Shown: piece after piece, positions 2,730 through 54,800 of the stretch
Layout of the letters: each line of letters begins with the position of its first letter
How positions within the stretch are numbered: the stretch's first letter is position 1
Source: Squalus acanthias
Lineage: Eukaryota
Direction of reading: 5' to 3'
Length of the DNA stretch: 64,000 nucleotides
NCBI GenBank assembly: GCA_030390025.1
Contig: CM059432.1
Span: 48,114,001 to 48,178,000, forward strand
Made by a program: the position numbers and the translations under genes
The notes under the pieces: model-generated
The model's database searches: none
What the model saw: only the letters and a program-made list of their open reading frames with translations
What the model was told of the DNA's origin: nothing

Positions 2730-2841
2730 GAAAGAAAGACTTGCATTTATATTGTGCCTTTCATGACCACCGGATGTCCCAAAGCGCTTTACAGCCAATG
2801 AAGTACTTTTTGAAGTGTAGTCACTGATGTAATGTAGGAAA
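2730..2841 (-). mobile_element. Deu-SINE-like (SacSINE1-like) 3' tail inserted in the LINE
   Basis: AAGAAAGACTTGCATTTATA...CCAATGAAGTACTTTT...GTAATGTAGG. The same segment recurs at 26471-26581, and the opposite orientation at 24660-24810. Confidence 0.65.
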
Positions 2842-5251: not shown

Positions 5252-5564
5252 TGTAAGGGGGCGTGTCTCAGATGGTGCTGGTGCGAGGTTAGGCCTTCAT
5301 TGCCTATACTATTGCTTGCTCTGGTCTCCGGCCAGCCTTTTTGCAATAAGCACCTGTGAGTGGTTCGACCCACTCGCCCTTACGGTTCTGACACCTGGAC
5401 TTAGATGCAAGGAGCAGTAATGCAGAGAAAAACTCAAATAGACCCGGTTGAATAGTACAAAATGAAATCTTTATTGCATGGCGTCTAAAATCATGAAATA
5501 CATGTCATAGGCGCAAATCAAAGAGAGTACAAATATACACACATTCATAAAGCTTGGTCTATGG
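5252..5564 (-). mobile_element. LTR copy (U5 end) of the gag/env element family, truncated by the gap
   Basis: Starts TGTAAGGGG and is colinear with 33834-34590 (excluding the SINE) and 42322-42630. It interrupts the LINE at GAAGGACAAGG. Confidence 0.9.
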
Positions 5565-6035
5565 NNNNNNNNNNNNNNNNNNNNNNNNNNNNNNNNNNNN
5601 NNNNNNNNNNNNNNNNNNNNNNNNNNNNNNNNNNNNNNNNNNNNNNNNNNNNNNNNNNNNNNNNNNNNNNNNNNNNNNNNNNNNNNNNNNNNNNNNNNNN
5701 NNNNNNNNNNNNNNNNNNNNNNNNNNNNNNNNNNNNNNNNNNNNNNNNNNNNNNNNNNNNNNNNNNNNNNNNNNNNNNNNNNNNNNNNNNNNNNNNNNNN
5801 NNNNNNNNNNNNNNNNNNNNNNNNNNNNNNNNNNNNNNNNNNNNNNNNNNNNNNNNNNNNNNNNNNNNNNNNNNNNNNNNNNNNNNNNNNNNNNNNNNNN
5901 NNNNNNNNNNNNNNNNNNNNNNNNNNNNNNNNNNNNNNNNNNNNNNNNNNNNNNNNNNNNNNNNNNNNNNNNNNNNNNNNNNNNNNNNNNNNNNNNNNNN
6001 NNNNNNNNNNNNNNNNNNNNNNNNNNNNNNNNNNN
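5565..6035. other. Assembly gap (471 N)
   Basis: Run of N. Confidence 1.
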
Positions 6036-29264: not shown

Positions 29265-32200
29265 TTAACAGGCGTGATCCACGAGCAGCGTGGACCCCAT
29301 GGACGAGCACTTTGGAGGGGGAGGGCGAAAACGGGATGAGGTCCTAAAAGCAGAATATAGGGAGTTAGGAGGTAAATTAAAAAAGAGGACCTCAAAAGTA
29401 GTAATCTCAGGATTGCTACCAGTGCCACGTGCTAGTCAGAGTAGAAATAGGAGGATATTTTAAATGAATACGTGGCTAGAGGAATGGTGCAAGGGGGAGG
29501 GATTCAAATTCCTTGGACATTGGAACCGGTTCTGGGGGAGGTGGGACCAGTACAAACGGGACGGTCTGCACCTGGGCAGGGCCGGGACCGATGTCCTAGG
29601 GGGAGTGTTTGCTAGTGCTGTTGGGGAGGGTTTAAACTAAAGTGGCAGGGGGTTGGGAACCTGAGCAGGGAGACAGAGGAAAGGGAAATAAGGATAAAAT
29701 CTAAAGACAGGAAGGAGAAAAACAAAAGTAGAAGACAAAGAACTCAACGGTTTAAATCAAACATGGTCATAGTAAATAATAATTCATATAGGTCTGAAAG
29801 CGTTAAAAAAATAAGCCTGAAGGCTTTGTGTCTTAATGCAAGGAGCATTCGGAACAAGGTGGATGAATTAGCTGCACAAATAGAGGTAAATGAATACGAT
29901 TTGATTGGGATTACAGAAACATGGCTCCAGGGGGGCCAAGGCTGGGAACTCAACATCCAGGGTTATTCAATATTTAGGAAAGATAGGCAAAAAAGAAAGG
30001 GAGGTGGGGTAGCATTGCTGGTTAAAGAGGGGATTAACACAATTGAAAGGAAGGATATTAGCTCTGATGATGCGGAATCTGTATGGGTAGAACTGAGAAA
30101 TAACAATGGGCAGAAAACGTTAGTGAGAGTGGTATATAGAACTCCAAACAGTAATACGGAGGTTGGGGACGGCATTAAAAGGGAAATTCGAGAAGCATGC
30201 AGTAAGGGCACAGCAGTCATCATGGGTGACTTTAATCTACATATAGATTGGGCTAACCAAATTAGTAAAAATACTGTGGAGGAGGAATTCCTAGAATGTT
30301 TACGAGATGGTTTTCTGGAACAATATGTCGAGGAACCAACCAGAGATCAGGCCATCTTAGACTGGGTATTATGTAACGAGAAAGGATTAATTAGCAATCT
30401 TGTTGTACGAGGCCCCTTGGGTCAGAGTGATCATAATATGATAGAATTCTTCATTAGGATGGAGAGTGAAGTAGTTGAATCAGAGACTAGGGTCCTGAAT
30501 TTAAATAAAGGAAACTACGATGGTATGAGGCGCGAATTGGGTAGGATTGATTGGGGAATGTCACTCAAGGGGTTGACGGTGGATAGGCAATGGCAAACAT
30601 TCAAAGACTGCATGGATGAACTACAGAATTTGTACATCCCAGTGTGGCATAACAATAAAACAAAAAGGGTGACTCAACCGTGGCTAACAAGGGAAATTAG
30701 GGATAGCATAAGATCCAAGGAGAGGGCATATAAATTGTCTAGAAAAAGCGGTAGCCCTGAGGATTGGGAGCAGTTTAGGATTCAACAAAGGAGGACAAAG
30801 GGATTAATTAAGAAGGGGAAAATAGAATATGAAAGTAAGCTTGCTGGGAACATAAAAACTGACTGTAAGAGCTTTTATAGATATGTGAAGAGAAAAAGAT
30901 TAGTGAAATCAAGTGTAGGTCCCTTGCAGTCAGAAGCGGGGGAAGTTATAATGGGGAACAAAGAAATGGCAGCCCAATTAAATGCATATTTTGGTTCTGT
31001 CTTCACAAAGGAGGACACAAATAAGCTCCCAGAGATGTTGGAGAACATACGGTCTGATGAAAGGGAGGAACTGAAAGAAATCAGTATTTGCAGCGAAATG
31101 GTGTTAGGGAAATTGACGGTATTGAAGGCCGATAAATCCCCAGGGCCTGATAATCTACATCCTAGGGTACTTAAGGAAGTGGCCCTAGAAATAGTAGATG
31201 CATTGCTGATCATCTTCCAACATTTGATGGAATCTGGAACTGTACCCATGGATTGGAGAGCAGCTAATGTTACCCCACTATTCAAAAAGGGTGGTAGAGA
31301 GAAAACGGGGAATTACAGACCGGTAAGCCTGACATCGGTAGTGGGGAAAATGCTAGAGTCCATTATAAAGGATGTAATAGCTGAGCATTTGAAAAACAGT
31401 GACAGGATCGGACAAAGTCAACATGGATTTACAAAAGGTAAATCGTGCTTGACTAATCTACTGGAATTTTTTGAGGATGTAACTGGGAAAATAGATAAGG
31501 GAGAACCAGTAGATGTGGTGTATTTGGACTTTCAAAAGGCTTTCGATAAGGTCCCGCATAAGAGATTAGCGGGTAAAGTTAAGGCACATGGGATTGGGGG
31601 CAAGGTATTGACTTGGATAGAGAACTGGTTGGCGGACAGAAAGCAGAGAGTAGGAATTAATGGGTCTTTTTCCGAGTGGCAAGCAGTGACTAGTGGGGTA
31701 CCGCAGGGATCGGTCCTTGGACCCCAGCTATTCATAATATACATTAATGATCTAGATAAGGGAATTAAATGTAATATCTCCAAGTTTGCAGACGACACAA
31801 AGCTGGGTGGGAGTGTGTGCTGCGAGGAGGATACCGAGAAACTCCAGGATGATCTGGACAGGTTGGGTGAGTGGGCAGAAGCATGGCAGATGCAATATAA
31901 CGTGGATAAGTGCGAGGTTATCCACTTTGGTGTCAAAAACAGAAAGGCAGACTATTATCTGAATGGCAATAGATTGGGAGAAGGGGAAGTGCAACGAGAC
32001 CTGGGTGTCCTTGTGCACCAGTCGCTGAAAGTAAGCATGCAGATGCAGCAGGCGGTGAAGAAGGCAAATGGTATGTTGGCCTTCATAGCGAAAGGGTTTG
32101 AGTATAGGAACAGGGATGTCCTGCTGCAGTTGTACAGGGCCTTGGTGAGACCACACCTTGAGTACTATGTGCAGTTTTGGTCGCCTTATCTGAGGAAGGA

Positions 32201-32725
32201 TGTTCTTGCCATGGAAGGAGTTCAGCGAAGATTCACAAGGCTGATACCTGGGATGGCAGGAATGACATATGAAGAGAGATTGGGTCGATTGGGCTTATAC
32301 TCGCTGGAGTATAGAAGAATGTGAGGGGATCTCATCGAAACATATAAAATTCTGACAGGTCTGGACAAACTAGATGCAGGAAGAATGTTCCCGATGGTCG
32401 GAGAGTCCAGAACCAGGGGTCATAATCTACGGATAACGGGTAAACCATTTAGGACAGAAATGAGGAAGAATTTCTTCACCCAGAGAGTGGTGAACCTGTG
32501 GAATTCTCTACCACAGAAGGTAGTTGAGGCCAAGTCATTAAATATATTCAAGGATGAGTTAGATATATTTCTTAAAGCTAAAGGTATCAAGGGATATGGG
32601 GAGAAGGCAGGTACAGGGTACTGAGTTTAGATGATCAGCCATGATCTCATCGAATGGCGGAGCAGGCTCGAGGGGCCGAATGGCCTACTCCTGCTCCTAT
32701 CTTCTATGTTTCTATGTTTCTATGT
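29265..32725 (+). mobile_element. 5'-truncated CR1 LINE
   Basis: 3' half of the ORF1 esterase region, ORF2, 3' UTR and (TTCTATGT)n tail. Confidence 0.93.
29763..32624 (+). pseudogene. CR1 ORF2p (APE-RT) with a single late nonsense codon at 32322-32324
   Basis: 853-aa ORF continues in frame into 32385-32624. The RRM*GD position corresponds to RRLRGD in the 10360 copy. Confidence 0.92.
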
Positions 32726-33833: not shown

Positions 33834-35960
33834 TGTAAGGGGTTCGGTCGTGGGTGCTTGTGCGGGGTTAAGCCTTCGTCGCCTAATCCTATTGCTTGCT
33901 CTTGTCTCCGGCCAGCCTTGTTGCAATAAGCACCTGTGAGTGGTTCGACCCACTCGCCCTTACGGTTCTAACACTGGACTTAGGTGCAAGAGCAGTAATG
34001 CAGAGAAAACTCAAATAGACCCGGTTGAATAGTACGAAATGGAAATCTTTATTGCATAAGGGCAACACGGTGGCATAGTGGTTAGCACTGGTGCCTCACA
34101 GCGCCAGGGACCCGGGTTCGAATCTGGCCTCGGGTGACTGTCTGTGTGGAGTTTGCACATTCTCCCCGTGTCTGCGTGGGTTTCCTCCGGGTGCTCCGGT
34201 TTCCTCCCACAGTCCAAAAATGTGCGGGTTAGGTTGATTTGGCTATGATAAATTGACCCTTAGTGTTAGGGGGGGATTAAATATGTGGGGTTACGGGGAT
34301 AGGATAGGAAGGGATATGTTAGGGGGAATTAAATACGTGGGGTTACGGGGATAGGGTGGGATATGTGTTGGTGCAGGCTCGATGGGGATTCTGGTGAGAA
34401 AGCAGGGACAGGGTACTGGATTTGGATGATCAGCCATGATTGTATTGAATGGTGGAGCAGGCTCGATGGGCCGAATGGCCTACTCCTGCTCCTAGTTTCT
34501 ATGTTTCTATAACGTCCAAAATCATGAAGTACATGTCATAGGCACAAATTAATGACAGTACAAGTATACATACATTCATAAAACTTGGTCTAGGGTAATG
34601 AGGAACGCACGGCACATCGTAAAAAGGGGAACACATTATATTTATCCTTAATAAAACCACCCTCCCCTATCAATACCTACACTAATCTAGATTTGTAGGA
34701 TCGAGAAACATGCTCACCACTCGTGATACTTCGGAGAATTTTAAAGTGAGGCGCTCGGCTCGTTTCGCTGCAGCGCCTGACTGTCACGTGTTGAAAAGGG
34801 TCTCTGTACCCCACTTGTTTATCTGCTCTGCTCCGGCTAGCAGGCTGGATCGTCTGTTGTCATGAAGAACTGTGTAGAGCTCGGACACTTGGTAGAATTC
34901 AAACAAGAGTCTTCCTGTACCAGTTCGTGTAGTATTCGGTAAAACTCGAAGATGAGGTTTTACCGGTTCGTGCAGTAACTTATAGAGTTCAAAAATGGTC
35001 TATATATTTTCGGGCGCGGTCGGGGTTTACTGACCGCGGCGGCACGTGTAGTCTTCTTCTTCTCTTCTCGTCTCGTCTCGTCTCGTCTCTTCTGGCCTTC
35101 GGGTCCAGACACCGTTTACCGACCCTCGGGATGGTGCACCCGATCACTTGCCTTTGTTGAGGCGGCTCGTTCCGTTTGAGCTCCAACCAACATTCGAAGT
35201 CCAGCTCTCAAAAGAGCTTCAGCAGTCAGCAACAAGACAAGAGGTCGACTCCAAGTGGATCAGCGGAATAAGAGCCCGGAGAATAAGAGTTCAGCCCGAG
35301 TCAAAAGTCAGCAGAGATAAGAGACCGATGGACATTTGTTCAGTTAAGTTATAGTGCTGGGTTCCCTTATCTCCCGCCCAAATCTTAATGTTCATCTTTT
35401 GTAAAATCTTGGCGCTCAAAATTCCCAGTATGGGGTGATTCTGTCTGTAATGGGTTTCGGTAACACTTGTAACTGGCCAAATACCCGTTAATGTTTTTCC
35501 CATTGTGGAACCGGCTAGGAGCCTCCCTGACGGGGTTTTGGGGGCCTCCGAATACTTGTGTAAGCACCCGAGAATGGCTCTCTCATTGTAGAGCTGTGGG
35601 GAATTTGCGTATTGATGTATCTGGATGGGCCTTTGATTGCCCAGTACAATAGTCCTTACTTGTGCATGGAAAACGATTCCAGCACTTATATCTCTTGCTA
35701 TTGTGTCGAATGCAGACAGGTCGCATCCTGTCTTTATCAATGTTTGCTGAGTATTATCCAATCTTATACTGAAATGTTTATTCGAACGCCATCTTGTCTG
35801 CCCACTGAAAATTCTGGAAACTTCTGCCACGAGGTGTGGCGGCCATTTTACAGGCTTCTTGTGTCCCTTTTAATCATGACAGCATTTCGTTTAAATAAAC
35901 TGCTTAAACGAATCTGTATTTCTCTCGTTATTTTGAATCGTGATATTTGCGAACTTTACA
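33834..35960 (-). mobile_element. LTR-A: LTR with 4-bp TSD AGTG, carrying a V-SINE insertion
   Basis: TGTA...TACA termini. AGTG at 33830-33833 and 35961-35964. The flanks rejoin as an old CR1 (CATTATTCTAGTG|AATCTACACTGC). Confidence 0.95.
34060..34508 (+). mobile_element. V-SINE (HE1-like) with CR1-derived 3' tail
   Basis: A box TGGCATAGTGG, B box GGTTCGAATCT, V-domain-like GTGGAGTTTGCACATTCTCCCCGTGTCTGCGTGGGTTTCCTCCGG. Tail matches the CR1 3' UTR. ATAA is duplicated, and the insertion is absent from LTR-B. Confidence 0.9.
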
Positions 35961-36590
35961 AGTGAATCTACACTGCATCCTTACCATGGATCAATTATAT
36001 TTTCTTTAATGGGGTGCTGAGAACTGCATGCAATACTCCAACTGTGGCTCAACCAAAGTATTGTACAAATTCAACATCACTTCCTTCCTGTGTAGGTGTC
36101 AACCTTGGCTCAGTGGTAGCACCCTTTATCTCTAAATCAGAAGGTTGTGGGTTCAAGTCCCACCCCAGAGACATGAACACATAATCTAAGCTGACATCTC
36201 AGTGCAGGACTGAGGGAGTGCTGCACTTTCAGAAGGTGCCAGTTGTTAAGATAAGACATTAAACCGAGAATGGTAAGTCTGCCCTCTAAGGTAGGTGTAA
36301 AAGATCCTCTGGCATTAATTTGAAAATGAACAGGGAAGTTCTCCCTGGTTTCTGAGGGATCACCACTATTCTTTGTATAAGCACTTTCTTTTATTTTTGT
36401 ACTATCTCTCACCTCTTTTGTTGACCAAGGTTGTTTAATTACACAAGTAGAGCTCTTGCCCTTTAGGGAGTACAGGACTTGTATTCTACCAAATACTAAT
36501 TTGAACACCTCCCACTGTTTATCTGAAGTTTTATCCATTAACTATTCTCCCCAGTTTACAGAGGTCAATTTCTGCCTCATCCTTTCAAAG
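35961..36590. repeat. ~630-bp host flank duplicated at 43991-44620
   Basis: Near-identical (about 3 differences by eye). Old CR1 plus Deu-SINE-like head. Confidence 0.95.
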
Positions 36591-36765
36591 GCAGCCAAAG
36601 TCAAGGAAAAAAATAATCCAACAACTATTTTAAAAATACAAAAGTTAAAATAACCAAAAACAACTCTTTTAAAATACAAAGTTCCAAACTTGGTTACATA
36701 TCTTCATAACTAACAATCAATTACAAAACACACATGGGAAAATGGAGCGGCGTCATCTTGGCCGT

Positions 36766-39104
36766 TTACGCGGCGCTTTCCTCGTGCACGCGCACGTAAC
36801 GTTCTCTCCACTCTCCTGTGTTCTCCTGCTTTGTGAGGCGCTTGCCTCTCTTGCAGTGCACGACCAATAGGTACACTACAATTATTACTTGGCACACAAC
36901 TAAAATGTGGGAGGCTATCCTAATCCATGAAGGCACTTCAATATTGGTGAACAGATCCCACCACGGTGGGATTACTATGTCTAGAATTTCTGTCCCTATC
37001 TCGACAGTCTTTTGTTCTAGGGTGTAAAAATGTTTTTGCGATACCGCGACGGCTTTCAAAAGCTTGGTGAGGTGTTCAGGGAGAGGGGGAATGATGTATC
37101 CGAAATGCGCGACGAATCGCTGCAAGTCGGTAAAATTCTCTTTTACTGTTAGATGAACAGTGGATGGTTCAGGGATCGGGACAATTCGCTGCTGTGCCAC
37201 TTGAACTTCAGCCCTGGGTTTAAAACAGAAACTGCTGTCACTCACCGGACACCGGCTACGGCTTCCATGCTGGTAGTGTTGCGCTGCAGTGGTAACGCAA
37301 TATGTTCCACCCCCTATGTATGCCACCTGCGGAGGCACATGATCTTGTGTCATTGCCTCCATGGTGCAATTCATGGGCTTGGCGCCAGCCGTTCTGAACC
37401 CGCATTGTGGTGTTAAAAAGGCATTCAAGTGCTGGGGACACAGTATCATGTGTGCTCCCCGGCCACGACAACCCGATAGGTCTGTACCTGTCATCGTTTG
37501 CTCCCAGCGGATGACGTAAGGTGGGACCGCTGCGTAGCGAATGTGGGCTCCCCCCTGAATGACACCAATGTTCTCCACCCGATACACCGGGGCGGGCTTT
37601 GCTGTGTCGCCCAAGACCGGCATACGTAGTACTATACCCATGATGGTATGGTTTGACCGTCCGCAGTCCACGGGGACTGGGTATGCTTCTGAGGCTAGCC
37701 TGAGCTGGCACGGGCTTAATGCATTCTGAAAAGGGTGGAGCGCCTGCAGGTGTTTGTTACTTATCCAGGACGGGACCAAACCTTGTTTTAAATCCTCCAA
37801 ATTACTGCGGCCCTCGCCTAGTAACCATGCCCCGTATAGTACGCACACCTCGTTCTGCGCAGCTTGATCGGATGCATTCCGATCTTCCCTAATCAGGGCA
37901 TTTACCATTCTCGAATGTTTCTCCAGCTCTGCTATAATTTCCTTTAAGTGTAGCGTCATGGCCTGGTCCTCATGTAACTCAGACCCTACTACCTTGTTTT
38001 CGCTTGTGAGGATGCTTTTTAATTGTGTTTTTAAACCATTGATCTGGGTCTGCAGCTCCACGTTGTCTAGAGCGTTGACCACAGATGTCCCTGTATTAAA
38101 GGCAGTGAACATGTCGTTCACAACACCCCTTCTTTGTCTCCCCACCTGACCCAAAACTTCGTGTGGTGTGGTGTACAAGCTTGTTTTGTCAATCTCTGCA
38201 AAATCAAACTCGTAGAATTGTCTAAACATGTTTGTCAACAGGACCTGGTACAATTGTTCCGTCTCTTTGGGGCACCACTCTGGCAACCGCACCTCGGTGA
38301 GATTTAAAATCACCGAGGCCACCGCGTAATGTACCCCCTGAAATAGTATCTGGTCTGTTGGGACCAGTACCAAACCATTCCAGGGCCCCTTAGTGGTTTT
38401 AGGGCACCCTTCCTCCTGAGCCAAAACCACCGGAATCGTGGGCGGAGCCTTGCGTGGGCGCGTGATGAGTTCAGTGGCGTTTACCGGGATCGGAGAGTAT
38501 GGAGCTCCGCACCCCCTGGTGCTGACATCCCACCTCATCCCTTTCCCGTTATCCTGCCACTGGTTTACGAAAAATATGGATATACCCTTGGGGCAAACGT
38601 ACTTCGATCCCCACATACAAACATATATTCCCACCATTTGTCCCAACAGACTTTCAATTGTCCGTTAGTCCCCGTAATTGTCCGATGGGTATTGTTACCC
38701 AATCGCTCCCACTCGACCGAGGAATTTCTCATATTCTTGCTCAATTTCCGTAACCACCACCATCGGCTCAATGGGACCTTCCCATTGCATGTCAAACAAA
38801 TCCTTTTGCCGACGGTGACGCTGATTCTGGGTGCAATGATTCTCACTCTGGGGCACATCAAAGAAGTCTCTTTGTAGGCAAATCCGGATGCGCTGGAGTA
38901 TTCCATTGAATTCGTTCCCAGCCATCCCGGCCACCTTCCCTTGTGGAAATAAGTGGCGGTCTCCTCAGCCTTTCACTCCCCGGTCCCATCCGTCGCGATG
39001 GGGGCCGTGTCCCCGGAGCAACCAAACACAACGACATCCTTGGTGAGGCCCCGATAGGCCAATCCATATCCGATCGCTGCGAGCACTATCAGAATCCGTT
39101 CCAT
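36766..39104 (-). pseudogene. env: Envelope glycoprotein: signal peptide, Ig-like domain, F-type class I fusion protein, TM anchor (one TGA and one frameshift)
   Basis: ATG at 39104 reads MERILIVLAAIGYGLA. TGA at 38973-38975 is in frame with ORF 38565-38906, then a frameshift near 38640 leads into the 626-aa ORF. That ORF has furin site RQRR (38128-38139), heptad repeats, a Cys-rich region and TM IASHILVVCQVIIVVYLLVVHC. Confidence 0.85.
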
Positions 39105-39135
39105 CTTTCCTGGTTCCTGTGATCAGATAAAATGA
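39105..39135 (-). promoter_or_regulatory. Putative env splice acceptor and Kozak context
   Basis: Minus strand reads CATTTTATCTGATCACAG|GAACCAGGAAAG-ATG-G (A at -3, G at +4). Confidence 0.55.
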
Positions 39136-39380
39136 TGTAGCCAGCCTCCCAAGAGTCTCTGGCTTTTGTGAAGGGTGAGCGGGTCCCTTGACCTCGTCTC
39201 ACGTATAACGACATGTATGCTGGATAGACTTTAACTAATCCTATCTCTAACTCCCATCATTTATCTTTTACTTTTAAAATTAAACTACCAACTCACCAAA
39301 CTTACAAACTATAACTTAAACTTATAACTTATCCTTAACTTATAAACTGTACAGCGCCGCCCGTTCCCAGGGCGGCCTAC

Positions 39381-40493
39381 TCAAATTCTGCGAAGGCTGT
39401 TGCGAGCTTTTCCCAACGGTGGGAGGGCACTGACCCCTTCCTTTGATCCACCGCAGCCTGTCGCTGCTGCGCTGGGACTGGGATCTCCCTGGGCTGCCTT
39501 GACCTTGAACTTACGCCTGGGGGCGCGCGGGGGACTTGACCACACCTTCCTGGGCTTGGGTGTCCGACCTGACCTACGGAGGGCTACATTGGGCAAGATT
39601 TCCAGGGCCGACGGACCGGGTACTGAGACTTCCACCGTCGCGGCCTGTGGTCCCACCACAGCCGCTGGCTCCGTCTCCCCTGGCTCCGCCTCCCTGAACT
39701 CGGGATTTGCAGTTTCTGGTACCACCCTACTTGACCCAGTATGTGGTCCTCCACTCACAATCCCTACCTCCCCCAAGGGCAAGACTTCTAAGGCTGACGG
39801 ACCGGGTTCCGAGACTTCCACCGTCACGACCTGTGGTCCTACCACAGCCGCTGGCTCCGTCTCCCCTAGCTCCGCCCCCCTGGGCTCGGGACCTGCAGTT
39901 TCTGATTCCACCCTGTGTGGATCTCCGCTCACAATCCCTATCTCCCCTACGCTTGAGTCGAGGGCGAACCTTTCGTCCTCCGATCTCAGCACCTCTCCGA
40001 TCGGGTCACTATCTTGGTCGAGCTCCTCGAGCTCTTCCTCATCGGAATCCCAACCCCAAGAAAAGATCTTACACTTTCCTAGAATGTCCTCTCCCCTCAC
40101 GCAGGCTGCTTTACCGGTCTGTGTGCCCTGCGGTCCGACCCGGGGCTGCGAGTCCCCACTCGCAGGTCTGGCCCCTGTGGTTGGCCCCTGTGCACCCGGC
40201 TTATACAACTTGCACTGGTTTAAATCCTCAGACTCCCTGCTTCTGGCTACCCTGCAGGCTGCCTTTATATCTCTAAGCTGCCCTTCTAGCCCATCTATTT
40301 TCCCCATTAAGCGGGCGTTCTCCTCCCGTAAGGCCTGCTCTCTAAGCTGCCCTTCTAGCCCGTCTACTTTCCCCATTAAGCGGGCGTTCTCCTCCCGCAG
40401 GGCCTGCTCTTTTAACCTGGCCTCCTTACAGGAGACCCCCTCCTGTGCGCGTTTTCCTAGGGGACACAGGTAGGCAGGCTGCACCGGTTCTAG
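39381..40493 (-). CDS. ORF-X: unknown coiled-coil/acidic/repeat/basic protein in frame with gag
   Basis: 370 open codons directly after the gag TAA, with no ATG at the start of the frame. Frame-preserving internal duplications (69 bp; 58/62 aa). Confidence 0.65.
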   Translation of the reverse strand, partial: LEPVQPAYLCPLGKRAQEGVSCKEARLKEQALREENARLMGKVDGLEGQLREQALREENARLMGKIDGLEGQLRDIKAACRVARSRESEDLNQCKLYKPGAQGPTTGARPASGDSQPRVGPQGTQTGKAACVRGEDILGKCKIFSWGWDSDEEELEELDQDSDPIGEVLRSEDERFALDSSVGEIGIVSGDPHRVESETAGPEPRGAELGETEPAAVVGPQVVTVEVSEPGPSALEVLPLGEVGIVSGGPHTGSSRVVPETANPEFREAEPGETEPAAVVGPQAATVEVSVPGPSALEILPNVALRRSGRTPKPRKVWSSPPRAPRRKFKVKAAQGDPSPSAAATGCGGSKEGVSALPPLGKARNSLRRI

Positions 40494-42317
40494 TTATTGG
40501 GTACTGGTGGACGGGGTCATGACATCTGTGAGGCCGGTAGCGACTGCCACCCTTCCTTGCGAAATCATTAGGGTCCGCATGGCTCCCAACATTGATTCTA
40601 TCGCATCGGGATGGATAGGCACACCAGCTCCTTTCTCAGAGACAGGCGCTTGGGTTCGGGCTGCGGGAATTTTATCCCTGGACTCCTTCCAGGGGTTCCT
40701 ACAGTTCTTACGCCAATGACCTGTCTTCCCGCACCCGTAACAAGCACCACTGGCCTGTGGGGCGCGGTTTCCCTCCTGATGCCACTCCTTTTGAGCCGGG
40801 GCTGCGGGCCGTGCCTCATGCACCTTTCCCTTAAGGGGACGCGCTCCCGTGCTCCTAGTGTTCCGATACCCTATCGTGAGTCGATTTAGGACCGACTCCT
40901 CTGTTGTGGCGGGGTTAGTGGGATCAAACCACACTTTGGCCTGCTCCCTGACGGCTGGCAAACTGTTGGCTCCTAAACACCTGAGCCAGTGAGTTAAACC
41001 GACACCGTTCAAATAGGCGCGCGCTGGCGCACCTGGGCAGCTACGCTGGTATACTGGCCACAGCCTGTCGGCAAAAACCTTCGGGGGTTCTCCCTCCATC
41101 TCCACTGTCTGACCCAATCTAACGAACGGACCTTTGTCATCCGCCCCCAACACTTCTAGGACCTATTCCCTTAACTCCTCATAGGTCCTATTTTCCCTCT
41201 TGCTCTCGTCTGAGAGACACTGGAGGATCGAGCTATCTAATGAGAACAGCAACATTTTTGTCTTTTCCGCATCGTCGCAGCCATTAATTGCTGCGGTCTG
41301 TTCTACCTCCCTGAAGTGTACGGAAGGGTCGTCTGACTCAGACAGCTTCTGCACGTGACTAATCATTGCTCTCAGCTGGTGTGAGCTGTGAGGCAACACA
41401 AGCTGGTTCAGGACATCCCCGTCCTCCCCATTGGCTCCGTTCGGGCCCCTCTTGTGACCTGTGAGCGGACACAACGGTCCCGGCTTCGACACTACCTTTG
41501 GGGATTGTCCTACCTCGGGGACCTCCTCTTCTATTTCCACCACTTCCTCCCTTACCCAGGTTGCCGAATATCTGGGTGGCGCGGAGGGCGCAGTGGCAAA
41601 TACCTCCTCTGCTTTGTTTGGTAGGGATTTGGGGAATTCCCTACCCACCTGTGGCTGGTGTGCTGACGGGCTGATGAGGCACACCATGCCGTTTGCCTTA
41701 TTCAGGGCCTCTCTAAGGTTCCGTATCTCCTTCAGGCAAACACTGTGGTCGGCTCCCTCATGCTTATCTTCGAGGGCCATCTTATATGCCGCCCTAACTC
41801 CCTTCAAGCTTTCTTCTTGGGCTCTTATCTGGGTAGCTAGGCGGGCACACTGTTCTCTAATCCTACCCTCGTTTAACTTCGCTTCCGTGACCTGACACTC
41901 TAGGTAATCTATTTTAGCCTCATGGTGGTTGGCTACTATCTGGCGTTCCTGATGTAACGCATTCAAGGATGCGATGAGTTTTTGTCCTCCCGCGACCTTT
42001 TCCTCCATCTCAACTCCCAATTCCCTGATCTGAGCTGCCTGTGCTACAATGACCTGGTCCGAAAGTTGGACTTGCTTCTTGTAGCACATCAGCCAGACCG
42101 CTTTCTCTACCGACTTCTTGTGCTCTTTACTGCCTGTCCATTTGATGGCTGCATCTAGCGGACGCTTATCCATCAGCAGGTCACTTATCCATCTTTTGGT
42201 TAAGTTAACCTTCCCAAATACATAGTCGGCTATCCTCTCATCCATCACATTTCGCCCATTCACACCAGGGTCTAAAGCATTACTCTCTCGCTGCCAGTGT
42301 ACCTTCGTGGTCGCCAT
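40494..42317 (-). pseudogene. gag: Gag (coiled coil - capsid - CCHC nucleocapsid), ~607 codons, one in-frame TAG at 41163-41165
   Basis: ORFs 41163-42317 and 40494-41153 share a frame. MHR-like QTVEMEGEPPKVFADRLW. Zinc knuckle CYGCGKTGHWRKNC (C-X2-C-X4-H-X4-C) at 40701-40742. Confidence 0.88.
42299..42316 (-). promoter_or_regulatory. Primer-binding site, tRNA-Arg(UCG)-type
   Basis: TGGCGACCACGAAGGTAC lies 5 nt after the LTR end. It is complementary at 17/18 nt to the vertebrate tRNA-Arg-UCG 3' end ...GUCCCUUCGUGGUCGCCA, recalled from memory. Confidence 0.75.
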
Positions 42318-42321
42318 TTTC

Positions 42322-43990
42322 TGTAATGGGTTCGGTCGTGGGTGCTTGTGCGGGGTTAAGCCTTCGTCGCCTAATCCTATTGCTTGCTCTGGTCTCCGGC
42401 CAGCCTTGTTGCAATAAGCACCTGTGAGTGGTTCGACCCACTCACCCTTACGGTTCTAACACTGGACTTAGGTGCGAGAGCAGTAATGCAGAGAAAACTC
42501 AAATAGACCCGGTTGAATAGTACAAAATGGAAATCTTTATTGCATAACGTCCAAAATCATGAAGTACATGTCATAGGCACAAATTAATGACAGTACAAGT
42601 ATACATACATTCATAAAACTTGGTCTAGGGTAATGAGGAACGCACGGCACATCGTAAAAAGGGGAACACATTATATTTATCCTTAATAAAACCACCCTCC
42701 CCTATCAATACCTACACTAATCTAGATTTGTAGGATCGAGAAACATGCTCACCACTCGTGATACTTCGGAGAATTTTAAAGTGAGGCGCTCGGCTCGTTT
42801 CGCTGCAGCGCCTGACTGTCACGTGTTGAAAAGGGTCTCTGTACCCCACTTGTTTATCTGCTCTGCTCCGGCTAGCAGGCTGGATCGTCTGTTGTCATGA
42901 AAAACTGTGTAGAACTTGGACACTTGGTAGAATTCAAACAAGAGTCTTCCTGTACCAGTTCGTGTAGTATTCGGTAAAACTCGAAGATGAGGTTTTACCG
43001 GTTCGTGCAGTAACTTATAGAGTTCAAAAATGGTCTATATATTTTCGGGCGCGGTCGGGGTTTACTGACTGCGGCGGCACGTGTAGTCTTCTTCTTCTCT
43101 TCTCGTCTCGTCTCGTCTCTTCTGGCCTTCGGGTCCAGACACCGTTTACCGACCCTCGGGATGGTGCACCCGATCACTTGCCTTTGTTGAGGCGGCTCGT
43201 TCCGTTTGAGCTCCACCCAACATTCGAAGTCCAGCTCTCAAAAGAGCTTCAGCAGTCAGCAACAAGACAAGAGGTCGACTCCAAGTGGATCAGCGGAATA
43301 AGAGCCCGGAGAATAAGAGTTCAGCCCGAGTCAAAAGTCAGCAGAGATAAGAGACCGATGGACATTTGTTCACTATAGTTATAGTGCTGGGTTCCCTTAT
43401 CTCCCACCCAAATCTTAATGTTCATCTTTTGTAAAATCTTGGCGCTCAAAATTCCCAGTATGGGGTGATTCTGTCTGTAATGGGTTTCGGTAACACTTGT
43501 AACTGGCCAAATACCCGTTAATGTTTTTCCCATTGTGGAACCGGCTAGGAGCCTCCCTGGCGGGGTTTTGGGGGCCTCCGAATACTTGTGTAAGCACCCG
43601 AGAATGGCTCTCTCATTGTAGAGCCGTGGGGAATTTGCGTATTGATGTATCTGGATGGGCCTTTGATTGCCCAGTACAATAGTCCTTACTTGTACATGGA
43701 AAACGATTCCAGCACTTATATCTCTTGCTATTGTGTCGAATGCAGACAGGTCACATCCTGTCTTTATCAATGTTTGCTGAGTATTATCCAATCTTATACT
43801 GAAATGTTTATTCGAACGCCATCTTGTCTGCCCACTGAAAATTCTGGAAACTTCTGCCACGAGGTGTGGCGGCCATTTTACAGGCTTCTTGTGTCCGTTT
43901 TAATCATGACAGCATTTCGTTTAAATAAACTGCTTAAACGAATCTGTATTTCTCTCGTTATTTTGAATCGTGATATTTGCGAACTTTACA
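42322..43990 (-). mobile_element. LTR-B, 5' LTR (1669 bp)
   Basis: TGTA...TACA termini. TATATA at 43036-43041 and AATAAA at 42536-42541 on the minus strand. ~99% identical to LTR-A apart from the SINE. Confidence 0.95.
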
Positions 43991-45326
43991 CGTGAATCTA
44001 CACTGCATCCTTACCATGGATCAATTATATTTTCTATAATGGGGTGCTGAGAACTGCATGCAATACTCCAACTGTGGCTCAACCAAAGTATTGTACAAAT
44101 TCAACATCACTTCCTTCCTGTGTAGGTGTCAACCTTGGCTCAGTGGTAGCACCCTTTATCTCTAAATCAGAAGGTTGTGGGTTCAAGTCCCACCCCAGAG
44201 ACATGAACACATAATCTAAGCTGACATCTCAGTGCAGGACTGAGGGAGTGCTGCACTTTCAGAAGGTGCCAGTTGTTAAGATAAGACATTAAACCGAGAA
44301 TGGTAAGTCTGCCCTCTAAGGTAGGTGTAAAAGATCCTCTGGCATTAATTTGAAAATGAACAGGGAAGTTCTCCCTGGTTTCTGAGGGATCACCACTATT
44401 CTTTGTATAAGCACTTTCTTTTATTTTTGTACTATCTCTCACCTCTTTTGTTGACCAAGGTTGTTTAATTACACAAGTAGAGCTCTTGCCCTTTAGGGAG
44501 TACAGGACTTGTATTCTACCAAATACTAATTTGAACACCTCCCACTGTTTATCTGAAGTTTTATCCGTTAACTATTCTCCCCAGTTTACAGAGGTCAATT
44601 TCTGCCTCATCCTTTCAAAGTCAGCCTTACCTAAATTTAAAACCTTGGTTCATGACTCACACTTCTCCCTTTCAAACCTAAGGATAATTCCGAGGATAGT
44701 TAGACTAAAACATTGTGTAGTTCCAAGAATATTCCTTATCTGCCTTTTTAATCTTCAACATTTAAAGGTTAAATTATTTCTGCAGCTGTTATCTGAAGGC
44801 GTGTATTTGAAAGCTGAAAAGGACATTCATAAAAGAGCTAAATAGCCACCTGTACAAAAACAATACTCAACTAAAAGAGGTGTCTTAATATACTTAAATA
44901 GGAAATGCATTTAGATTAAGAAACCAGCTGCTAATATGTGCCACAACTACAGCAAAATTAGACATTAGAAATATTTCATTGCGTTGTTTATGGGATAATT
45001 CATCAGTGGACTGAGGAGTGGAACAATCACACGCAGAATGTAATGCAGGAGCAGTGAATGGAGCAGTTAGGTGAAGTGGGAGCTGGAGCAAGGATTGACT
45101 GGGACACCAGACACCAAGGTGAATCTGGAATGGAATGGGGTCAGCTTACTGTTATCTGGTAACTGAGAATGACAAGGTGTTGGGCCTGAGGAGGGTGCAC
45201 AAATTCCTGGGGCTGAAGCCAGGAGTGGAGGCATTATTAAAGCTGAGACTGGGAACAGAGATGTTCCTAGGGTTGAGAACACAAACAGACGTGTTGCTAG
45301 AGCTGAGGATGGGAGTGGTACTGAAG

Positions 45327-46250
45327 AGCATAAGAACATAAGAAATAGAAGCTGGAGTAGGCCATTCGGCCTTTCAAGCCTGCTCCACCATTCAATAAGA
45401 TCATGGCTGATCTTCTATCTCTTTACTAATACTGATTTCTTTAAGTTCCTCATTCTCACTGGGCCCTTGGTTCCCCAGTATTTCCGGAATGTTTTTTGTG
45501 TCATCTTTCATGAAGACAGATGCAAAGTATTTGTTTAATGTCCCTGCCATTTCCTTATTCTCCATTATAATTTCTCCTGTCTCTGCCTGTAAGGGACCCA
45601 CATTTACTTTCACTAATCTCTTCCTTTTTGCATACCTACAGAAGCTTTTACAATCTGTTTTATGCCTTACTAGTTTATTCTCATATTCTATTTTCTCTCG
45701 CCCTTCTTTGCTGAATTCTAAAATCCTCCCAATCCTCAGACTTACTATTCTTTTTGGCAACATTATAAGCCTCTTCCTTTAATCTAATACTATCTTTAAC
45801 TTCTCTTGTTAGCCAAGGTTGGACCACTTTTCTTGTGGGGTTTTTATTCTTTAAGAGAATGTATATTTGTTGTGAATTATGAATTATTTCTTTAAAAGTT
45901 TGTCATGACTTATTTACCGTCATATCTTTTAATCTAGTTTCCCAACCTACCTTAGCCAACTCGCCTCTCATACCTACGTAGTTTGCTTTGTTCAGGTTTA
46001 AAACCCTAGTTTCAGACTTAACAAAATCACTCTCAAACTCAACAAAAATTCTATCATATTATGATCACTGCTCCCCAGAGGCTCCTTCACTACAAGGTTA
46101 TTAATTAGCCCTGTCTCATTGCACAATACTAGATCTAAAATAGCCTGTTCCCTAATTGGTTCCTCGACATACTGATCCAGAAAACTATCTTGAATTCATT
46201 CCATGAACTCATCCTCTGCACTATTACTGCAAATTTGGTTTGCCCAGTCG
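45327..46250 (-). mobile_element. CR1 fragments (3' tail joined to mid-ORF2)
   Basis: KIEYENKL...KTDCKSFCRYAKRKRLVKVNVGPLQ, with a CATAAGAA tail at 45328. Confidence 0.8.
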
Positions 46251-49364: not shown

Positions 49365-49679
49365 GATCACAGAATCCCCACAGTGCAGATAGAGGCCATT
49401 TTGGCCCATCGAGTCTGCACCGGCACATATCCCACCCTATCCCCCATAACCCCACGTATTTAATCCCCCATAACACTAAGGGTCAATTTATCATAGCCAA
49501 ATCAACCTAACCTGCACATCTTTGGACTGTGGGAGGAAACCGGCGCACCCGAAGGAAACCCACGCAGACACGGGGAGAATGTGCAAACTCCACACAGACA
49601 GTCACCTGAGGCTGGATTTGAACCCAGGTCCCTGGTGCTGTGAGGCAACAGTGCTAACCACTATGCCACCGTGTTGCCC
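49365..49679 (-). mobile_element. V-SINE
   Basis: Reverse complement of the 34060-34300 head and V-domain. Confidence 0.85.
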
Positions 49680-51808
49680 TATTGGTCAAGGCCATAGAGG
49701 GACATACAAAAAGGACAAAAATTTAAAACTAATAATTGGGGAACAGGAAGATATTGTAGGTTCATTAAGGATGGGGGTAATGGCCAAGTGGGGCACAGTT
49801 CAGGAGAAGGTATGAGTTTTGAACGAATTGGAATTAATGAGGGTGGAAGATGGGAGACCAGCAATGAGAGTTCGAGAAGTAGAGTGTGGAAATGATGAAG
49901 GCATGTTTAAGGGTTTCAGTGGCAAAGAGGCTGAAGTGGTCAATGTTGCAGCAGTCTTGGTGATCAATAGGATGTGCTGTTGAACAGGATGCCAAGATTA
50001 TAAATGGTCTGATTCAGCCCGAGAGAGTGGATGGGGAGGGAAATGAAACCAGTGGCAAAGGAACAGAGTTTGTGGTGGTTGCCAAAGCTGGGGCTGGAAG
50101 TTGTGACTCATCCAAGACTGATGTTGGACAGCAGTCTAATAGAACAGAGGCAGTCAAGGGGTTGAGAAGTGATAAAAACGTACAATTGGGTGTTTTCAGC
50201 ACACATGTGAAAGCTGGCTCTAAATACTGGCTTAGCATCCTGCAAGGTACTCATACCTGGACGGAGTGATCACTGGCTCAGTGGTGGTATTCCTGCCTCT
50301 GAGTCAGAAGGGCTTTTTGCGTTCCACTCCAGATAGTCCCGACGAACGGAGACCGGAGCACCAGCTCGGAATTCTGGGTAGGCATCGTTACTTGCATCTG
50401 AAGGGTGTGGGTGCCCCCCAGTCCCCCATCGTAAAGGGTAGGTGGGGCTCTTTAGACTTGGTTATAGCCCATCTAAGAGAAGGTACTCCGAAGATTAAAA
50501 TCCGTGAGGTAGACAATGGAAAACCACCTCAGCTACTCATCCCTAGTATGTGGCTCAAGAATCTCATGTGTGAGACTTGAGTTATGCTCTGCCTTCGGGC
50601 AGAACACATCGCATGGACGAAATACTTCAGAGGCTTTTCAGCTTAATCTTGTTTTTATTGAATGCATGCTGCAGAGGTGTTTCAGTGTAGGAGTTTGTTT
50701 ATAGGTCACCTTGACACCATAGAAACAGCATTAAATTTAGTCTGCAGTAACAAAACAACCGCAGCATGAAGCTGTATGTTTCCCGACAGCAACTGGAACT
50801 GCAAGTTTAATAAGTAGATTGAATAATTTTGCGTGAAGCTCTTCTGTTTTGTACGGTTTATAGGAAGATTGTGAAGAAGTTGTTGATGTGATGTAGCATA
50901 TTTCTTTGGGACCCAAAATTCACAGCCCTTGCGGTGCAGTCCCAGCATAACTCTGACAGGAATCCAGAGGAAGGATTGCCGGGACCCGGCCTTCCCAGAA
51001 CTTTCTGCAGGGCCTCATTAGGGGTAGAGCCTCCGCCAGCCCCAGACACCGCCAGCAGCATAGACAGGTAATGGCCGAGATGGGGACTCTCAGGTTGGGA
51101 GTTGCCGTGTACCCGGCCCAGAATGAGATCAGTGGATGTATAGAGAGAAAGCAGACGTATCGATCTGCCAACCGGCAGAAGAGGGGCCCAACTTGGGGGG
51201 TTCAGGCCTGGACTTGTCATAGAGGCCTGAAGATCTTTTCAAGTACAAGTTTTCCTCGGACCCGTTTTAAAAGGGGGCAATGGCCACACTATGGAGATGT
51301 TTCTGAAGGAGGCAGGCACCTCCCTTCAGTGAAAAAACAATATCACAGCATTTGTTAATGTAAAGGGGACTTATCACAAGATTACAGATTGTAGCAACTA
51401 GGAGCTTGCAACTCCCATCTGGAGTAGTGTATCCCTGTGATTTAGCCCTGCAGTCCGTCAATCAAAACATCAACCCAGAAAGACTACGGCTTAGAAATTC
51501 GATAAGGCCTGAAAACGGGCGGTGCCACCGACCGCAGGGTGAGATTTGCTCGCGGCCATAAAAAAAAATCGCAGGCAGCATGTTATTTTGGTGATGCCTG
51601 CTGATTTGAATGAATTCAGCGCACAGCCGAGTGACCAATGCGCTGCTTCAGGCCGTGTGCTCAGCAGGAGGCCCAATGTCGCATCCCTATAGCGTCCCTG
51701 GAGCGAGGCTGCCTTTTCTTAAAGCAAGGCTGTCATTTTAGAAAGCAATCTCGATCCCTTAAAGGGGAACTGCCTTTTGAAAAAAAGAATTAAAAATCAT
51801 TCAAAAAT

Positions 51809-54800
51809 CTTCTTCTTCTTCTTAGGCAGTCCCTCGGAACCGAGGATGACTTGCTTCCACATTAAAAATGAGTTCTCAGGTGACTGATGAGTCCAATGCG
51901 GGACCTACAGTCTCTGTCACAGGTGGGGCAGACGGTGGTTGAAGGGGCGGGTGGGTGGGGTGCTTGGGTTGACGTGCGCTCCTTCTGCTGCTTGCGCTTG
52001 GCTTCCGCTTGCTCCTGGCGAAGAGACTCGAGGTGTTCGGTGCCTTCCCGGATGCTTCTCCTCCACTTTGTGCGGTCTTGGGCCAGGGATTTCCAGGTGT
52101 CGGTGGGGATGTTGCACCTTTTCAAGGAGGCTTTGAGGGTGTCCTTGAAGCATTTCCTCTGCACACCTGGGGCTCTCTTGCCGTGTCGGAGCTCTGAGTA
52201 GAGCGCTTGTTTTGGGAGTCTCGTATCGGGCATGTGGACGACGTGACCCATCCATCGGAGCTGATCGAGCGTGGTCAAAGCTTCGACGCTGGGGATGTTG
52301 GCCTGAACGAGAACTCTGATGTTGGTGCGCCTATCCTGCCAATGGATTTGCAGGATCTTGCAGAGGCAGCATTGGTGGTACCTCTCCAGTGCTTTGAAGT
52401 GCGTGCTGTACATGGTCCATGTCTCTGAGGCATACAGGAGGGCGGGTATCACTACTGCTCTGTAGACCATGAGCTTGGTGCCAGGTTTGAGGTCCTAGTC
52501 TTCCTCAGGTGACCGAAGGCTGCACTGGAACACTGAAGGCGGTGTTGGACTTCGTCATCGACGTCTGCCCTTGTTGACAGTAGGCTCCCGAGGTATGGAA
52601 AGTGGTCCACGTTGTCCAAGGCCTTGTCGTGGATTTTGATAATCGGGGGGCAGTACTGTGTAGCGGGGGCAGGTTGTTAGAGGACCTTTGTCTTATGGAT
52701 GTTTAGTGTAAGGCCCATGCTCTCGTACGCTTCGGTGAAGGTGTTGACGATGGTTTGGAGTTCAACCTCCGAGTGAGCGCAGACGCAAGCGTCGTCTGCA
52801 TACTGTAATTCGATGACAGAGGATGGGACGACCTTGGATCTGGACTGGAAGCGACGGAGGTTGAACAGTTTCCCGTTTGTTCTGTAAATTAGCTCCATTC
52901 CAGTGGGGAGCTTACTGAGGGTGAGATGGAGCATTGCAGCAAGGAAGATCGAGAAGAGCGTTGGTGCGATAGAACATAGAACATAGAACATAGAACAGTA
53001 CAGCACAGTACAGGCCCTTCGGCCCTCGATGTTGTGCCGAGCATTGTCCGAGACCAAGATCAAGCTATCACACTCCCTATCACTCTGGTGTGCTCCATGT
53101 GCTTATCCAATAACCGCTTGAAAGTTCCTAAAGTGTCCGACTCCACTATCACAGCAGGCAGTCCATTCCACACCCCAACCACTCTCTGAGTAAAGAATCT
53201 ACCTCGGACATCCCTTCTATATCTCCCCCCATGCACCTTATAGTTATGCCCCCTTGTAACAGCTGCCTCTACCCGAGGAAATAGTCTCTGAACATCCACT
53301 CTATCTATCCCCCTCATCATCTTATAAACCTCTATTAAGACGCCTCTCATCCTCCTCCGCTCTAAAGAAAAAAGCCCCAACTCCCTCAATCTTTCCTCAT
53401 AAGACCTCCCCCCCAAACCAGGCAGCATCCTGGTAAATCTCCTTTGCACTCTTTCCAATGCTTCCACGTCCTTCCTATAGTGAGGTGACCAGAACTGCAC
53501 ACAATATTCCAAATGTGGTCTCACCAAGGTCCTGTACAGTTGCAGCATAACCTCACGGTTCTTAAACTCAAACCCTCTGTTAATAAACGCCAACACACCA
53601 TAGGCCTTCTTTACTGCTCTATCCACTTGAGTGGCAACCTTCAGAGATCTGTGGATATGAACCCCCAGATCCCTCTGTTCCTCCACGTTCCTCAGAACCC
53701 TGCCATTGACCCTGTAATCCTTATTCAAATTTGCCCTACCAAAATGAATCACCTCGCACTTATCAGGGTTAAATTCCATCTGCCATTTTTCGGCCCAGCT
53801 CTGCATCCTATCAATGACACAGCCTTGCTTGACCCCGAATTGGGTCTGTGGTGGAACCGTTGGTCAGGATCACGGCTTGCATGTTGTCGTGAAGCAGGCA
53901 GAGGATGGTGACAAACTTTTGAGGGCAGCCGAATTTGAGGAGGACACTCCATAATCCCTCATGGTTGACAGTGTCGAAGGCCTTTGTGAGGTCAAAGAAG
54001 GCCATGTACAGCGGTTGGTGCTGTTCCCTGCATTTCTCTTGTAATTGACACGCGGTCAAGATCATGTTCATTGTGCTCCTTAGTGGGCGGAATCCGCATT
54101 GCGACTCTGGGAGGAGCTCTTCAGCCACTGGGAGAAGGTGATTGAGGAGGATTCTTGCGATGACTTTCCCTGTGGCAGACAGCAGGGAAACTGCTCTGTA
54201 ATTACCGCAATCGGACTTGTCACCTTTCTTGAAGATGGTTACAATTACGGTGTCTCTGGGATCCCCTGGCATGCTCTCCTCCTTCCAGTTAAGAGAAATG
54301 AGTTCATAATTTGTGCCAGTAGTGCTTCTCCGCCATGCTTTAGTGCCTCGGCAGGGATTCCATCTGCTCCTGAGACCTTGTTGTTCTTCCGTTGTTGGAT
54401 GGCCTTTTCAACCTCATGCCGGGCTGGGGTTGTGCTGAGGTGGTGGCGGGTAGCATGCTGCTGGATGGAGTTGAGAACACTTGCGTCGAAGACAGAGTCT
54501 TGGTTAAGGAGATCTTCTAAGTGCTCCTTCCAGCGGGCACTGACTGCCTCCCTGTCCTTGATGAGTACCTCTCCATTCTTAGCCCGCAGTGGGGTAGGAC
54601 CTTGGGTGCTTGGGCCATAGGTGGTCTTGACTGCGCTAAAGAATCCACGCACGTCGTAGTTGTCAGGTAGCTGCTGGATCTCCTGCGCTTTCTCCACCCA
54701 CCATCTGTTCTTTAGGTCGCGAGTTTTTTGTTGGACCTCGGCCTTCAGGCGTCTGTAGAGCTGCTTTCTTGCTCTCGAGTTGTGTTGCTGTTTCCAGATC

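Follow-up and report, generated by a model that had tools for sequence, protein, structure and literature searches.

Does a provirus that holds gag and env and none of the retroviral enzymes record a single accident, or a form of virus that multiplies with the enzymes of another? The question is raised by an endogenous retrovirus (ERV) of Squalus acanthias, found between positions 48,114,001 and 48,178,000 of contig CM059432.1 (forward strand; GenBank assembly GCA_030390025.1). This whole stretch of 64,000 nucleotides is called the window here, and coordinates refer to it unless another contig is named. The provirus spans 33834-43990 on the minus strand and is composed, in its own direction, of a 5′ long terminal repeat (LTR), an Arg-tRNA primer site, gag, an open reading frame (ORF) termed ORF-X, env and a 3′ LTR. 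An original prediction, made from the letters alone, had placed a pol-less retrovirus-like element at the narrower range of 36591-43990, which takes in the 5′ LTR and the internal region but stops short of the 3′ LTR (35960-33834). We find that the window copy is very probably a dead, rearranged member of a large non-autonomous ERV branch that spread by means of a pol-bearing helper.

What the window copy lacks is defined by a complete pol-bearing copy in the same genome, whose layout is LTR, primer-binding site (PBS), gag, TGA, pro-pol in the same frame, env, purine tract and LTR. Internal bases 1-1860 and 2102-5715 of the window copy are 95.1% and 95.7% identical to it. Between these matched blocks the pol-bearing copy has 3619 nt extra, where the window copy has a 241-nt filler, and the 3619-nt stretch carries RVP, RVT_1, RT_RNaseH_2, RNase_H, Integrase_H2C2, rve and an SH3-like domain. 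By Pfam, no domain of protease, reverse transcriptase (RT), RNase H or integrase is found in the window element, as had been predicted, nor in the filler-bearing copies examined. Two pol-bearing copies were read through: the complete one, and one (G000:C20:46116799-46131434) with ~5.7 kb of unrelated sequence nested between RT connection and RNase H.

The genome was searched with the internal region, and 28 of 8374 first-look candidates were scored, giving 44 matches. Eight of the 28 loci (type A) are colinear with the window copy along its entire 5.7-kb internal region, at 87-91% identity, and at least 11 (type B) are colinear at 93-96% identity, with small indels. Five loci match only from internal base 2100 or 2102 to 5715-5720, and these encode RNase H and integrase directly upstream. 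The left breakpoint, ~35 nt past the gag stop, and the filler are common to every colinear copy fetched; type B has one 69-nt filler unit, a 22-nt deletion at the gag end and a slightly different right junction.

Searching with the filler gave 40 scored matches, all 94-98% identical and lying on many contigs. A filler 22-mer (up to 2 mismatches) has 1304 matches in the genome, while an RT 24-mer around YVDD (up to 2 mismatches) has 2157; the controls (for the filler, the reversed pattern) have 0. The arrangement gag-ORF-X-env without pol is thus recurrent. Pol-bearing relatives are at least as numerous, judging by the RT matches, yet the deletion is not a one-off. A single provirus with a private, post-insertion pol deletion would agree with a copy that is dead and rearranged among numerous pol-bearing relatives, but we give it next to no probability: the same breakpoints and filler stand in every colinear copy fetched and in all the scored filler matches, the 22-mer recurs more than a thousand times, and other copies have flanks and duplications of their own.

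The copies also have the marks of separate insertion. The window copy is bounded by CACG (43994-43991) upstream and CACT (33833-33830) downstream, equal at three of four bases. In three further copies the ends are CCTA/CCTA, an exact target-site duplication (TSD), TAAC/CAAC, equal at three of four bases, and one with a truncated 5′ LTR. The 4-bp duplication that had been claimed for the window copy is therefore imperfect there and exact in another copy. LTR-pair identities range from 96.1 to 98.7% among the copies measured, so the insertions differ in age. Spread as DNA, by segmental or tandem duplication instead of reverse transcription and integration, could account for three exact filler matches on the same strand of contig C1 (115478979, 115498369 and 115517758), 19,390 and 19,389 bp apart. 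It is nevertheless a very improbable explanation of the branch, since the 40 scored matches lie on many contigs, flanks, TSDs and LTR-pair divergences are distinct in the copies examined, and copies differ by 3-8% with ratios of nonsynonymous to synonymous change (dN/dS) far below 1.

The idea of a non-autonomous element with a helper, put forward in the original prediction, is strengthened by the absence of the enzymes together with the presence, in the same genome, of pol-bearing relatives that share LTR ends, PBS, gag and env. The cis signals of the pol-bearing copy (TGTA...TTACA ends, a PBS matching at 17 of 18 positions and the purine tract ACAGGAGGGAC) are as in the pol-less copies. The comparison shows that a complete parent lost the 3.6-kb core of protease, RT, RNase H and integrase and gained the 241-nt filler in frame. 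In the sequence of events that we propose for its spread, pol-less RNA would be transcribed from the LTR and packaged with the Gag-Pol of a co-expressed pol-bearing relative; reverse transcription would be primed by tRNA-Arg, and the helper integrase would insert the copy, which would account for the 4-bp duplications. Ribosomes that now and then pass the gag UGA would yield Gag-X, as they would Gag-Pol in the parent. One part of the prediction does not survive, namely that the element is half of a two-component system. Its partner is a complete gag-pol-env virus, so that it would be a deletion parasite of a whole virus.

Composition and coding state of ORF-X

ORF-X is made of three pieces (Table 1). 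It opens with the start of pro-pol, continues through the filler and closes with a tail that corresponds to the stretch of pol past the integrase SH3-like domain; the pol frame ends at the same stop. By this comparison ORF-X is a remnant of pol, consisting of 11 pro-pol codons, the filler and ~279 pol-tail codons, and is not a new gene; it should be annotated as such. The long ORF noticed in the pol slot is thus truly open in the window copy, while its novelty falls away. Decayed pol had been considered for 39105-40493, and the 32-nt start and the ~840-nt tail are indeed there; the enzyme domains are absent.

The filler has no match in either pol-bearing copy beyond chance words of 9-13 nt (E of 0.15 or more), and its peptide has no homologue at E ≤ 0.01 among longer database proteins. 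A Pfam match of ORF-X to Rab11-FIP3 (E 0.022) looks like coiled-coil noise and was discarded. Folding of the 101 nt from the gag stop gave z values of -0.56 for the window copy, -0.82 for the pol-bearing copy and -2.23 for one type-A copy, none of them convincing as a read-through structure, pseudoknots being beyond the method.

Frames were scored against natural reference frames, and dN/dS was calculated by the Nei-Gojobori method. In type A, gag is open in four of eight copies and X in seven of eight. Within this set dN/dS comes to 0.24 in gag and 0.11 in env, and in X to 0.33 for the N-terminal part and 0.61 for the tail, at a dS of 0.08-0.18; the corresponding values in type B are 0.30 for gag and 0.22 for env.

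Could ORF-X have a function of its own, as a coiled-coil segment fused to an integrase tail, with Gag-X aiding packaging or hindering the helper? Despite different indels, types A and B and the window form all keep X in the frame of the preceding gag stop, and in the window copy one frame is common to gag, ORF-X and the beginning of env. The frame kept in all three forms, the seven open type-A copies, the N-terminal dN/dS in type A and a filler foreign to the parent would all suit such a role. We consider it unlikely, given the higher value for the tail, values of ~0.8 for both parts in type B and a filler peptide that is without family or homologue in Pfam and protein searches. Special preservation of ORF-X after insertion was also tried and rejected as not significant, with one disabling event against ~4.5 expected at the rate of gag plus env (Poisson p ~0.06) in a stretch that is G+C-rich. 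The region may moreover be kept for cis signals, such as an env splice acceptor.

Gene flow and dependence on a helper

Of 21 pol-less copies, eight have an open env: two of eight in type A, six of 12 in type B, the window copy being closed. Divergence is 4.6% for the filler, 5.5% for gag, 5.6% for the tail and 5.2% for env. The filler is exclusive to pol-less genomes, and since it has diverged like gag and env, the pol-less form has long been replicated as a unit.

Exchange with the helper is nonetheless evident. In the env tree, type-B pol-less and pol-bearing sequences interleave, with four mixed pairs at supports of 0.86-0.97, whereas type A forms its own clade (support 1.0). The window copy is a mosaic of a type-A filler and helper-like gag and tail. 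One pol-bearing copy (L024, G000:C5:74125374-74132020) has a pol tail that clusters with type A (supports 1.0 and 0.91); it may stand for an earlier lineage of helpers or have arisen by recombination. When the distance matrices are compared between segments, correlation is weak (r 0.05-0.62). The trees indicate that recombination between parasite and helper is frequent, as expected for co-packaged retroviral RNAs; co-packaging with helper RNA would explain the recombinant copies.

This exchange bears on how passive the pol-less form is. Its gag and env might seem conserved only because they are replenished by recombination with co-packaged helper genomes; it would then be an ordinary defective rider like ETn or the bovine D-type elements, and not a satellite that supplies its own capsid and envelope. 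The four mixed env pairs, the mosaic window copy, the pol-bearing copy with a type-A-like tail and the weak segment correlations all point that way, and we rate the chance of this as appreciable, if somewhat short of even. It is opposed by the separate env clade of type A and by the filler, which no helper carries and which has diverged as much as gag and env. Nor are shorter derivatives without gag or env seen among the 28 scored loci, to which a query with the whole internal region is biased towards bringing full-length copies.

Some of the results weigh against a helper-dependent branch as we have described it. The figures 1304 and 2157 are k-mer counts, not curated copies, and the three filler sites spaced by 19.39 kb suggest a tandem segmental duplication containing a pol-less copy, so that some matches are segmental duplicates. 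Only three insertion sites were inspected for TSDs, and two of the three match at three of four bases. Env is open in none of the five pol-bearing copies examined, among which a fully competent present-day helper is therefore not found. The dN/dS of X in type B, ~0.8, is high. Given the exchange of env, the low values of gag and env may reflect selection on pol-bearing genomes and not on the pol-less lineage. Transcription, packaging and mobilisation in trans would be the most likely route of spread.

Envelope, parent virus and related systems

Full-length natural Env is 783 aa long. Its RQRR site occupies residues 327-330, its helices residues 333-444 and 681-712, and its anchor residues 731-755. 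An AlphaFold model was made from a 33-sequence alignment. Its mean predicted local distance difference test (pLDDT) score is 58.5; residues 235-310 and 400-650 reach ~75-92, while the N-terminal 234 residues are modelled poorly (pLDDT <50 for most of 1-234). A weak Pfam Ig_3 match (E 0.038) at 38700-38830 falls in this N-terminal part, where the model is unreliable.

Foldseek against the PDB gave 245 matches at E ≤ 0.001, with paramyxovirus and pneumovirus F first; for human parainfluenza virus 3 F (1ztm) the E-value is 1.9e-12, the probability 1.00 and the template modelling score (target) 0.51. With VIA-align the top nine matches are all F proteins (Z 9.8-11.2, 280-355 residues aligned), and foamy-virus Env comes next (Z 8.4 and 8.1). 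As modelled, Env has an F-like class I fusion-protein fold, and the predicted F-type envelope is thus confirmed at fold level. The order of domains is that of paramyxovirus and pneumovirus F: signal peptide, short N-terminal part, basic cleavage site, long heptad helix, beta-rich domains, second heptad and anchor. Unlike comparisons with those proteins and with foamy Env at the level of structure, sequence comparison gives no match here, and the likeness is one seen in the model. The query Env has no Pfam family, PF00523 not being matched at E ≤ 0.1, and protein and profile comparison with PDB sequences gave nothing beyond coiled-coil noise. PF00523 is matched by 0 of 33 Env relatives at E ≤ 0.01, and Baculo_F by one of the 33 (E 0.0011). 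Atlas leads for Env were weak (0.84 to a chordate cluster and 0.75 to one that is 19% Baculo_F).

Among predicted viral structures (BFVD), Foldseek matched Env of walleye epidermal hyperplasia virus (E 6.6e-10) and walleye dermal sarcoma virus (E 4.4e-8), the two being entries Q9WHI8 and A4GTG3, and also glycoproteins of mononegavirus-like arthropod viruses, baculovirus F, paramyxovirus F0 and foamy Env (3.3e-5). On these models, epsilonretroviral Env may belong to the F-like fold class as well.

Sequence relatives of Env were found only among 51 database representatives, of which the closest named are from skate (77% identity) and sawshark. The skate annotation holds ‘uncharacterized proteins’, one 77% identical to Env over half its length and one 59% identical to Gag (98% coverage). 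Related elements are thus present in other elasmobranchs, where they are annotated as genes.

The helper RT is closest, among solved structures, to gammaretroviral RT, that of murine leukemia virus and xenotropic murine leukemia virus-related virus (E 7.7e-63), followed by foamy virus (7.3e-56) and Ty3 (5.5e-41), and the parent has the double RNase H arrangement of retroviral type. Its gag-stop-pol layout, the fish host and the predicted Env fold fit an epsilon-like class I virus. Epsilonretroviruses have gag and pro-pol in one frame with a stop between them, and carry accessory ORFs, cyclin-like and others. The likeness to these walleye viruses extends over the fish host, gag, TGA and pro-pol in one frame in the complete copy, and an Env model that matches their predicted Env models. 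The differences are a shorter Env (783 aa against 1159-1317), the tRNA-Arg primer and the lack of visible accessory (cyclin-like) ORFs: among stop-to-stop frames of at least 90 aa in the complete copy, only gag, pro-pol and env are large on the forward strand, and no other large ORF separates pol from env or follows env.

F-like envelopes had been noted as occurring in lokiretroviruses and errantiviruses. Membership in either is not shown, and for lokiretroviruses it is not supported. Lokiretroviruses are ERVs of fish and amphibians with an Env resembling paramyxovirus and pneumovirus F, which matches PF00523 by sequence at E 2.2e-7, according to the available text of PMC7947760. That marker is found in none of the 33 relatives of the present Env, the smc gene is not present here, and cartilaginous fishes are not among the hosts given in the abstract of that paper. 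Foamy-virus Env has been linked to the F fold in the accessible part of PMC11468914. The family described here would add an ERV family of cartilaginous fish to the F-fold retroviruses (foamy viruses, lokiretroviruses and, by predicted models, epsilonretroviruses), and so touches on the proposed antiquity of F-like fusogens among retroviruses.

This kind of element is already known. The chicken element EAV-HP (ev/J) has gag and env without pol, is regarded as replication-defective and helper-dependent, and has rarer pol-bearing relatives, as set out in the available portion of PMC3747184. It has ~10-15 copies per genome, against ~1300 filler matches here. It is a virus of birds, alpharetrovirus-like, and its Env is of the ordinary retroviral kind; that portion describes neither an in-frame filler nor a pol-tail ORF for it. 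In ETn/MusD, IAP I-delta-1, RecKoRV/KoRV-A and bovine ERVK[2-1-LTR] D-type/C-type, a deletion morph and an autonomous morph of one clade share LTRs, and such trans-mobilised morphs can outnumber the helper (PMC10924933, in the part available). Morphs of the ETn/MusD kind are described there as without functional genes, whereas here gag and env are open in many copies and have low dN/dS, the enzymes alone being lost.

New here are the host group and the lineage of the virus, the scale of the family, a gag and env that are retained and apparently selected, and an exchange of genes with the helper that can be seen in the sequences. No published description of the present family was found in the literature on lokiretroviruses, on non-autonomous or trans-complemented ERVs and on cartilaginous-fish ERV env; an anamniote Env preprint, in its accessible text, treats gamma-type Env only. 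With ~1300 filler against ~2150 RT sites, the family would be a very large natural case in which a deletion mutant parasitises the retrovirus that it came from, in a poorly studied host group, with both partners and their recombinants preserved together and, unlike the classic mouse and cattle cases, with gag and env kept open in the defective form.

A further step would be to see in the pol-less lineage a true satellite retrovirus, with its own selected capsid and F-like envelope and only the enzymes borrowed, in which Gag-X has adapted to imitate Gag-Pol, either recruiting the enzymes or damping the helper. We regard this as doubtful. If true, a long-lived parasite of a virus would make up about one-third of a 3,500-copy family.

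The window copy and its insertion site

The features of the window copy are listed in Table 1.

Table 1. Features of the provirus and its flanks in the window, in the direction of the provirus
Feature	Coordinates	Strand	Description
CR1/L2-like LINE fragment	43991..44631	-	original 5′ flank; last 4 bases are the upstream target-site copy
5′ LTR	42322..43990	-	1669 bp; TGTA at 43990, TACA at 42322
Internal region	36597-42321	-	between 5′ LTR and LINE duplicate
PBS	42299..42316	-	TGGCGACCACGAAGGTAC; five bases past LTR; complementary to tRNA-Arg(TCG) 3′ end plus CCA
gag	40494..42317	-	N-terminal coiled-coil part, MHR-like stretch, one CCHC knuckle; TAA at 40496-40494
ORF-X	39381-40493	-	open in window copy; three pieces
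Pro-pol start	40462..40493	-	32 nt, first 11 codons; in frame directly past gag stop
Filler	40221..40461	-	241 nt; two 69-nt tandem units encoding heptad-like repeats
Pol-frame 3′ end	39381..40220	-	~840 nt; acidic, repetitive; C-terminal 279 codons of ORF-X
env	36766..39104	-	signal peptide, 330-aa N-terminal subunit, RQRR, 453-aa F-like fusion subunit (by model) with anchor
3′ untranslated remnant	36597..36765	-	further ~267-270 bp, including purine tract of other copies, missing
Second LINE fragment	35961..36596	-	636 bp; local duplicate of 5′ flank; 3 mismatches in 635
3′ LTR	33834..35960	-	TGTA at 35960, TACA at 33834; split by 449-bp insertion at 34060-34508

The predicted LTR with TGTA...TACA ends is found as described. 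Between its two copies identity is 98.7% along 1452 bp and 97.8% along 226 bp. In a comparison of the window with itself, 33834-36596 repeats 42322-44626 (98.9% over 2088 bp plus 97.8% over 226 bp). The possibility that this whole 2.3-kb repeat is the LTR was rejected, as a reading of the long interspersed element (LINE) type runs across part of it. The repeat exceeds the true LTR because 636 bp of flanking LINE was duplicated before the 3′ LTR.

The LINE-type reading '...EPQLEYCMQFSAPHYRK...RMQCRFT' abuts the 5′ LTR, and 'RIMPGM...' resumes directly past the 3′ LTR; the two halves flanking the provirus are adjacent in three of three other LINE copies of the window. The provirus was therefore inserted into a LINE. 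Homology to the LINE upstream of 44626 continues at the 5′ copy only: 636 bp of the 5′ flank was copied before the 3′ LTR after insertion, displacing the purine-tract region. Other pol-less copies, like the pol-bearing copy, have the tract ACAGGAGGGAC before their 3′ LTR; it is absent from the window copy, where the LINE duplicate stands in its place. A single repair event might have done this, by leftward copying from the other LTR into its flank followed by end joining.

The predicted tRNA primer site is likewise present. The PBS agrees with the 3′ end of host tRNA-Arg(TCG) plus CCA at 17 of 18 positions in the window copy and at 18 of 18 in three other copies, and a tRNA-Arg(TCG) gene was located in the genome (L033:1448-1521) as the single exact match of the tRNA-end pattern. 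The gag ATG (42317) overlaps the PBS (ATGGCGACC...), which would leave hardly any leader between U5 and gag. The Met is conserved across types A and B and the pol-bearing copies.

The gag motifs noted earlier fare unequally. The knuckle, C-X2-C-X4-H-X4-C, is seen by Pfam as zf-CCHC just below the cut-off (E 5.9e-4; 20.3 bits against 20.8), and the major homology region (MHR)-like stretch, Q..E......F..RL, was judged by eye only. The AlphaFold model of the capsid is all-helical and, at a mean pLDDT of 42.7 (7-sequence alignment), too poor for a fold search.

The window gag, 95% identical to that of the pol-bearing copy, is interrupted by an in-frame TAG at 41165-41163. In the window env, codon 44 is a TGA (38975-38973), and loss of 13 nt near 38632 shifts the frame. 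The breaks in both genes, and the duplicate of the 5′ flank that stands in place of the purine tract, leave the window copy unable to move.

Part of the 449-bp insertion in the 3′ LTR matches 49430-49680 in inverted orientation at 92.9% identity, and further stretches of it match 32591-32715 and 45335-45412. The insertion probably represents a short interspersed repeat acquired once the provirus was in place. Elsewhere in the window, 5565-6035 is an assembly gap (471 N). The same CR1/L2-like LINE family occurs at 10261-11985, 19018-19296, 30513-32411 and 53267-53584, and the composition profile has a strong GC skew in two of these four regions.

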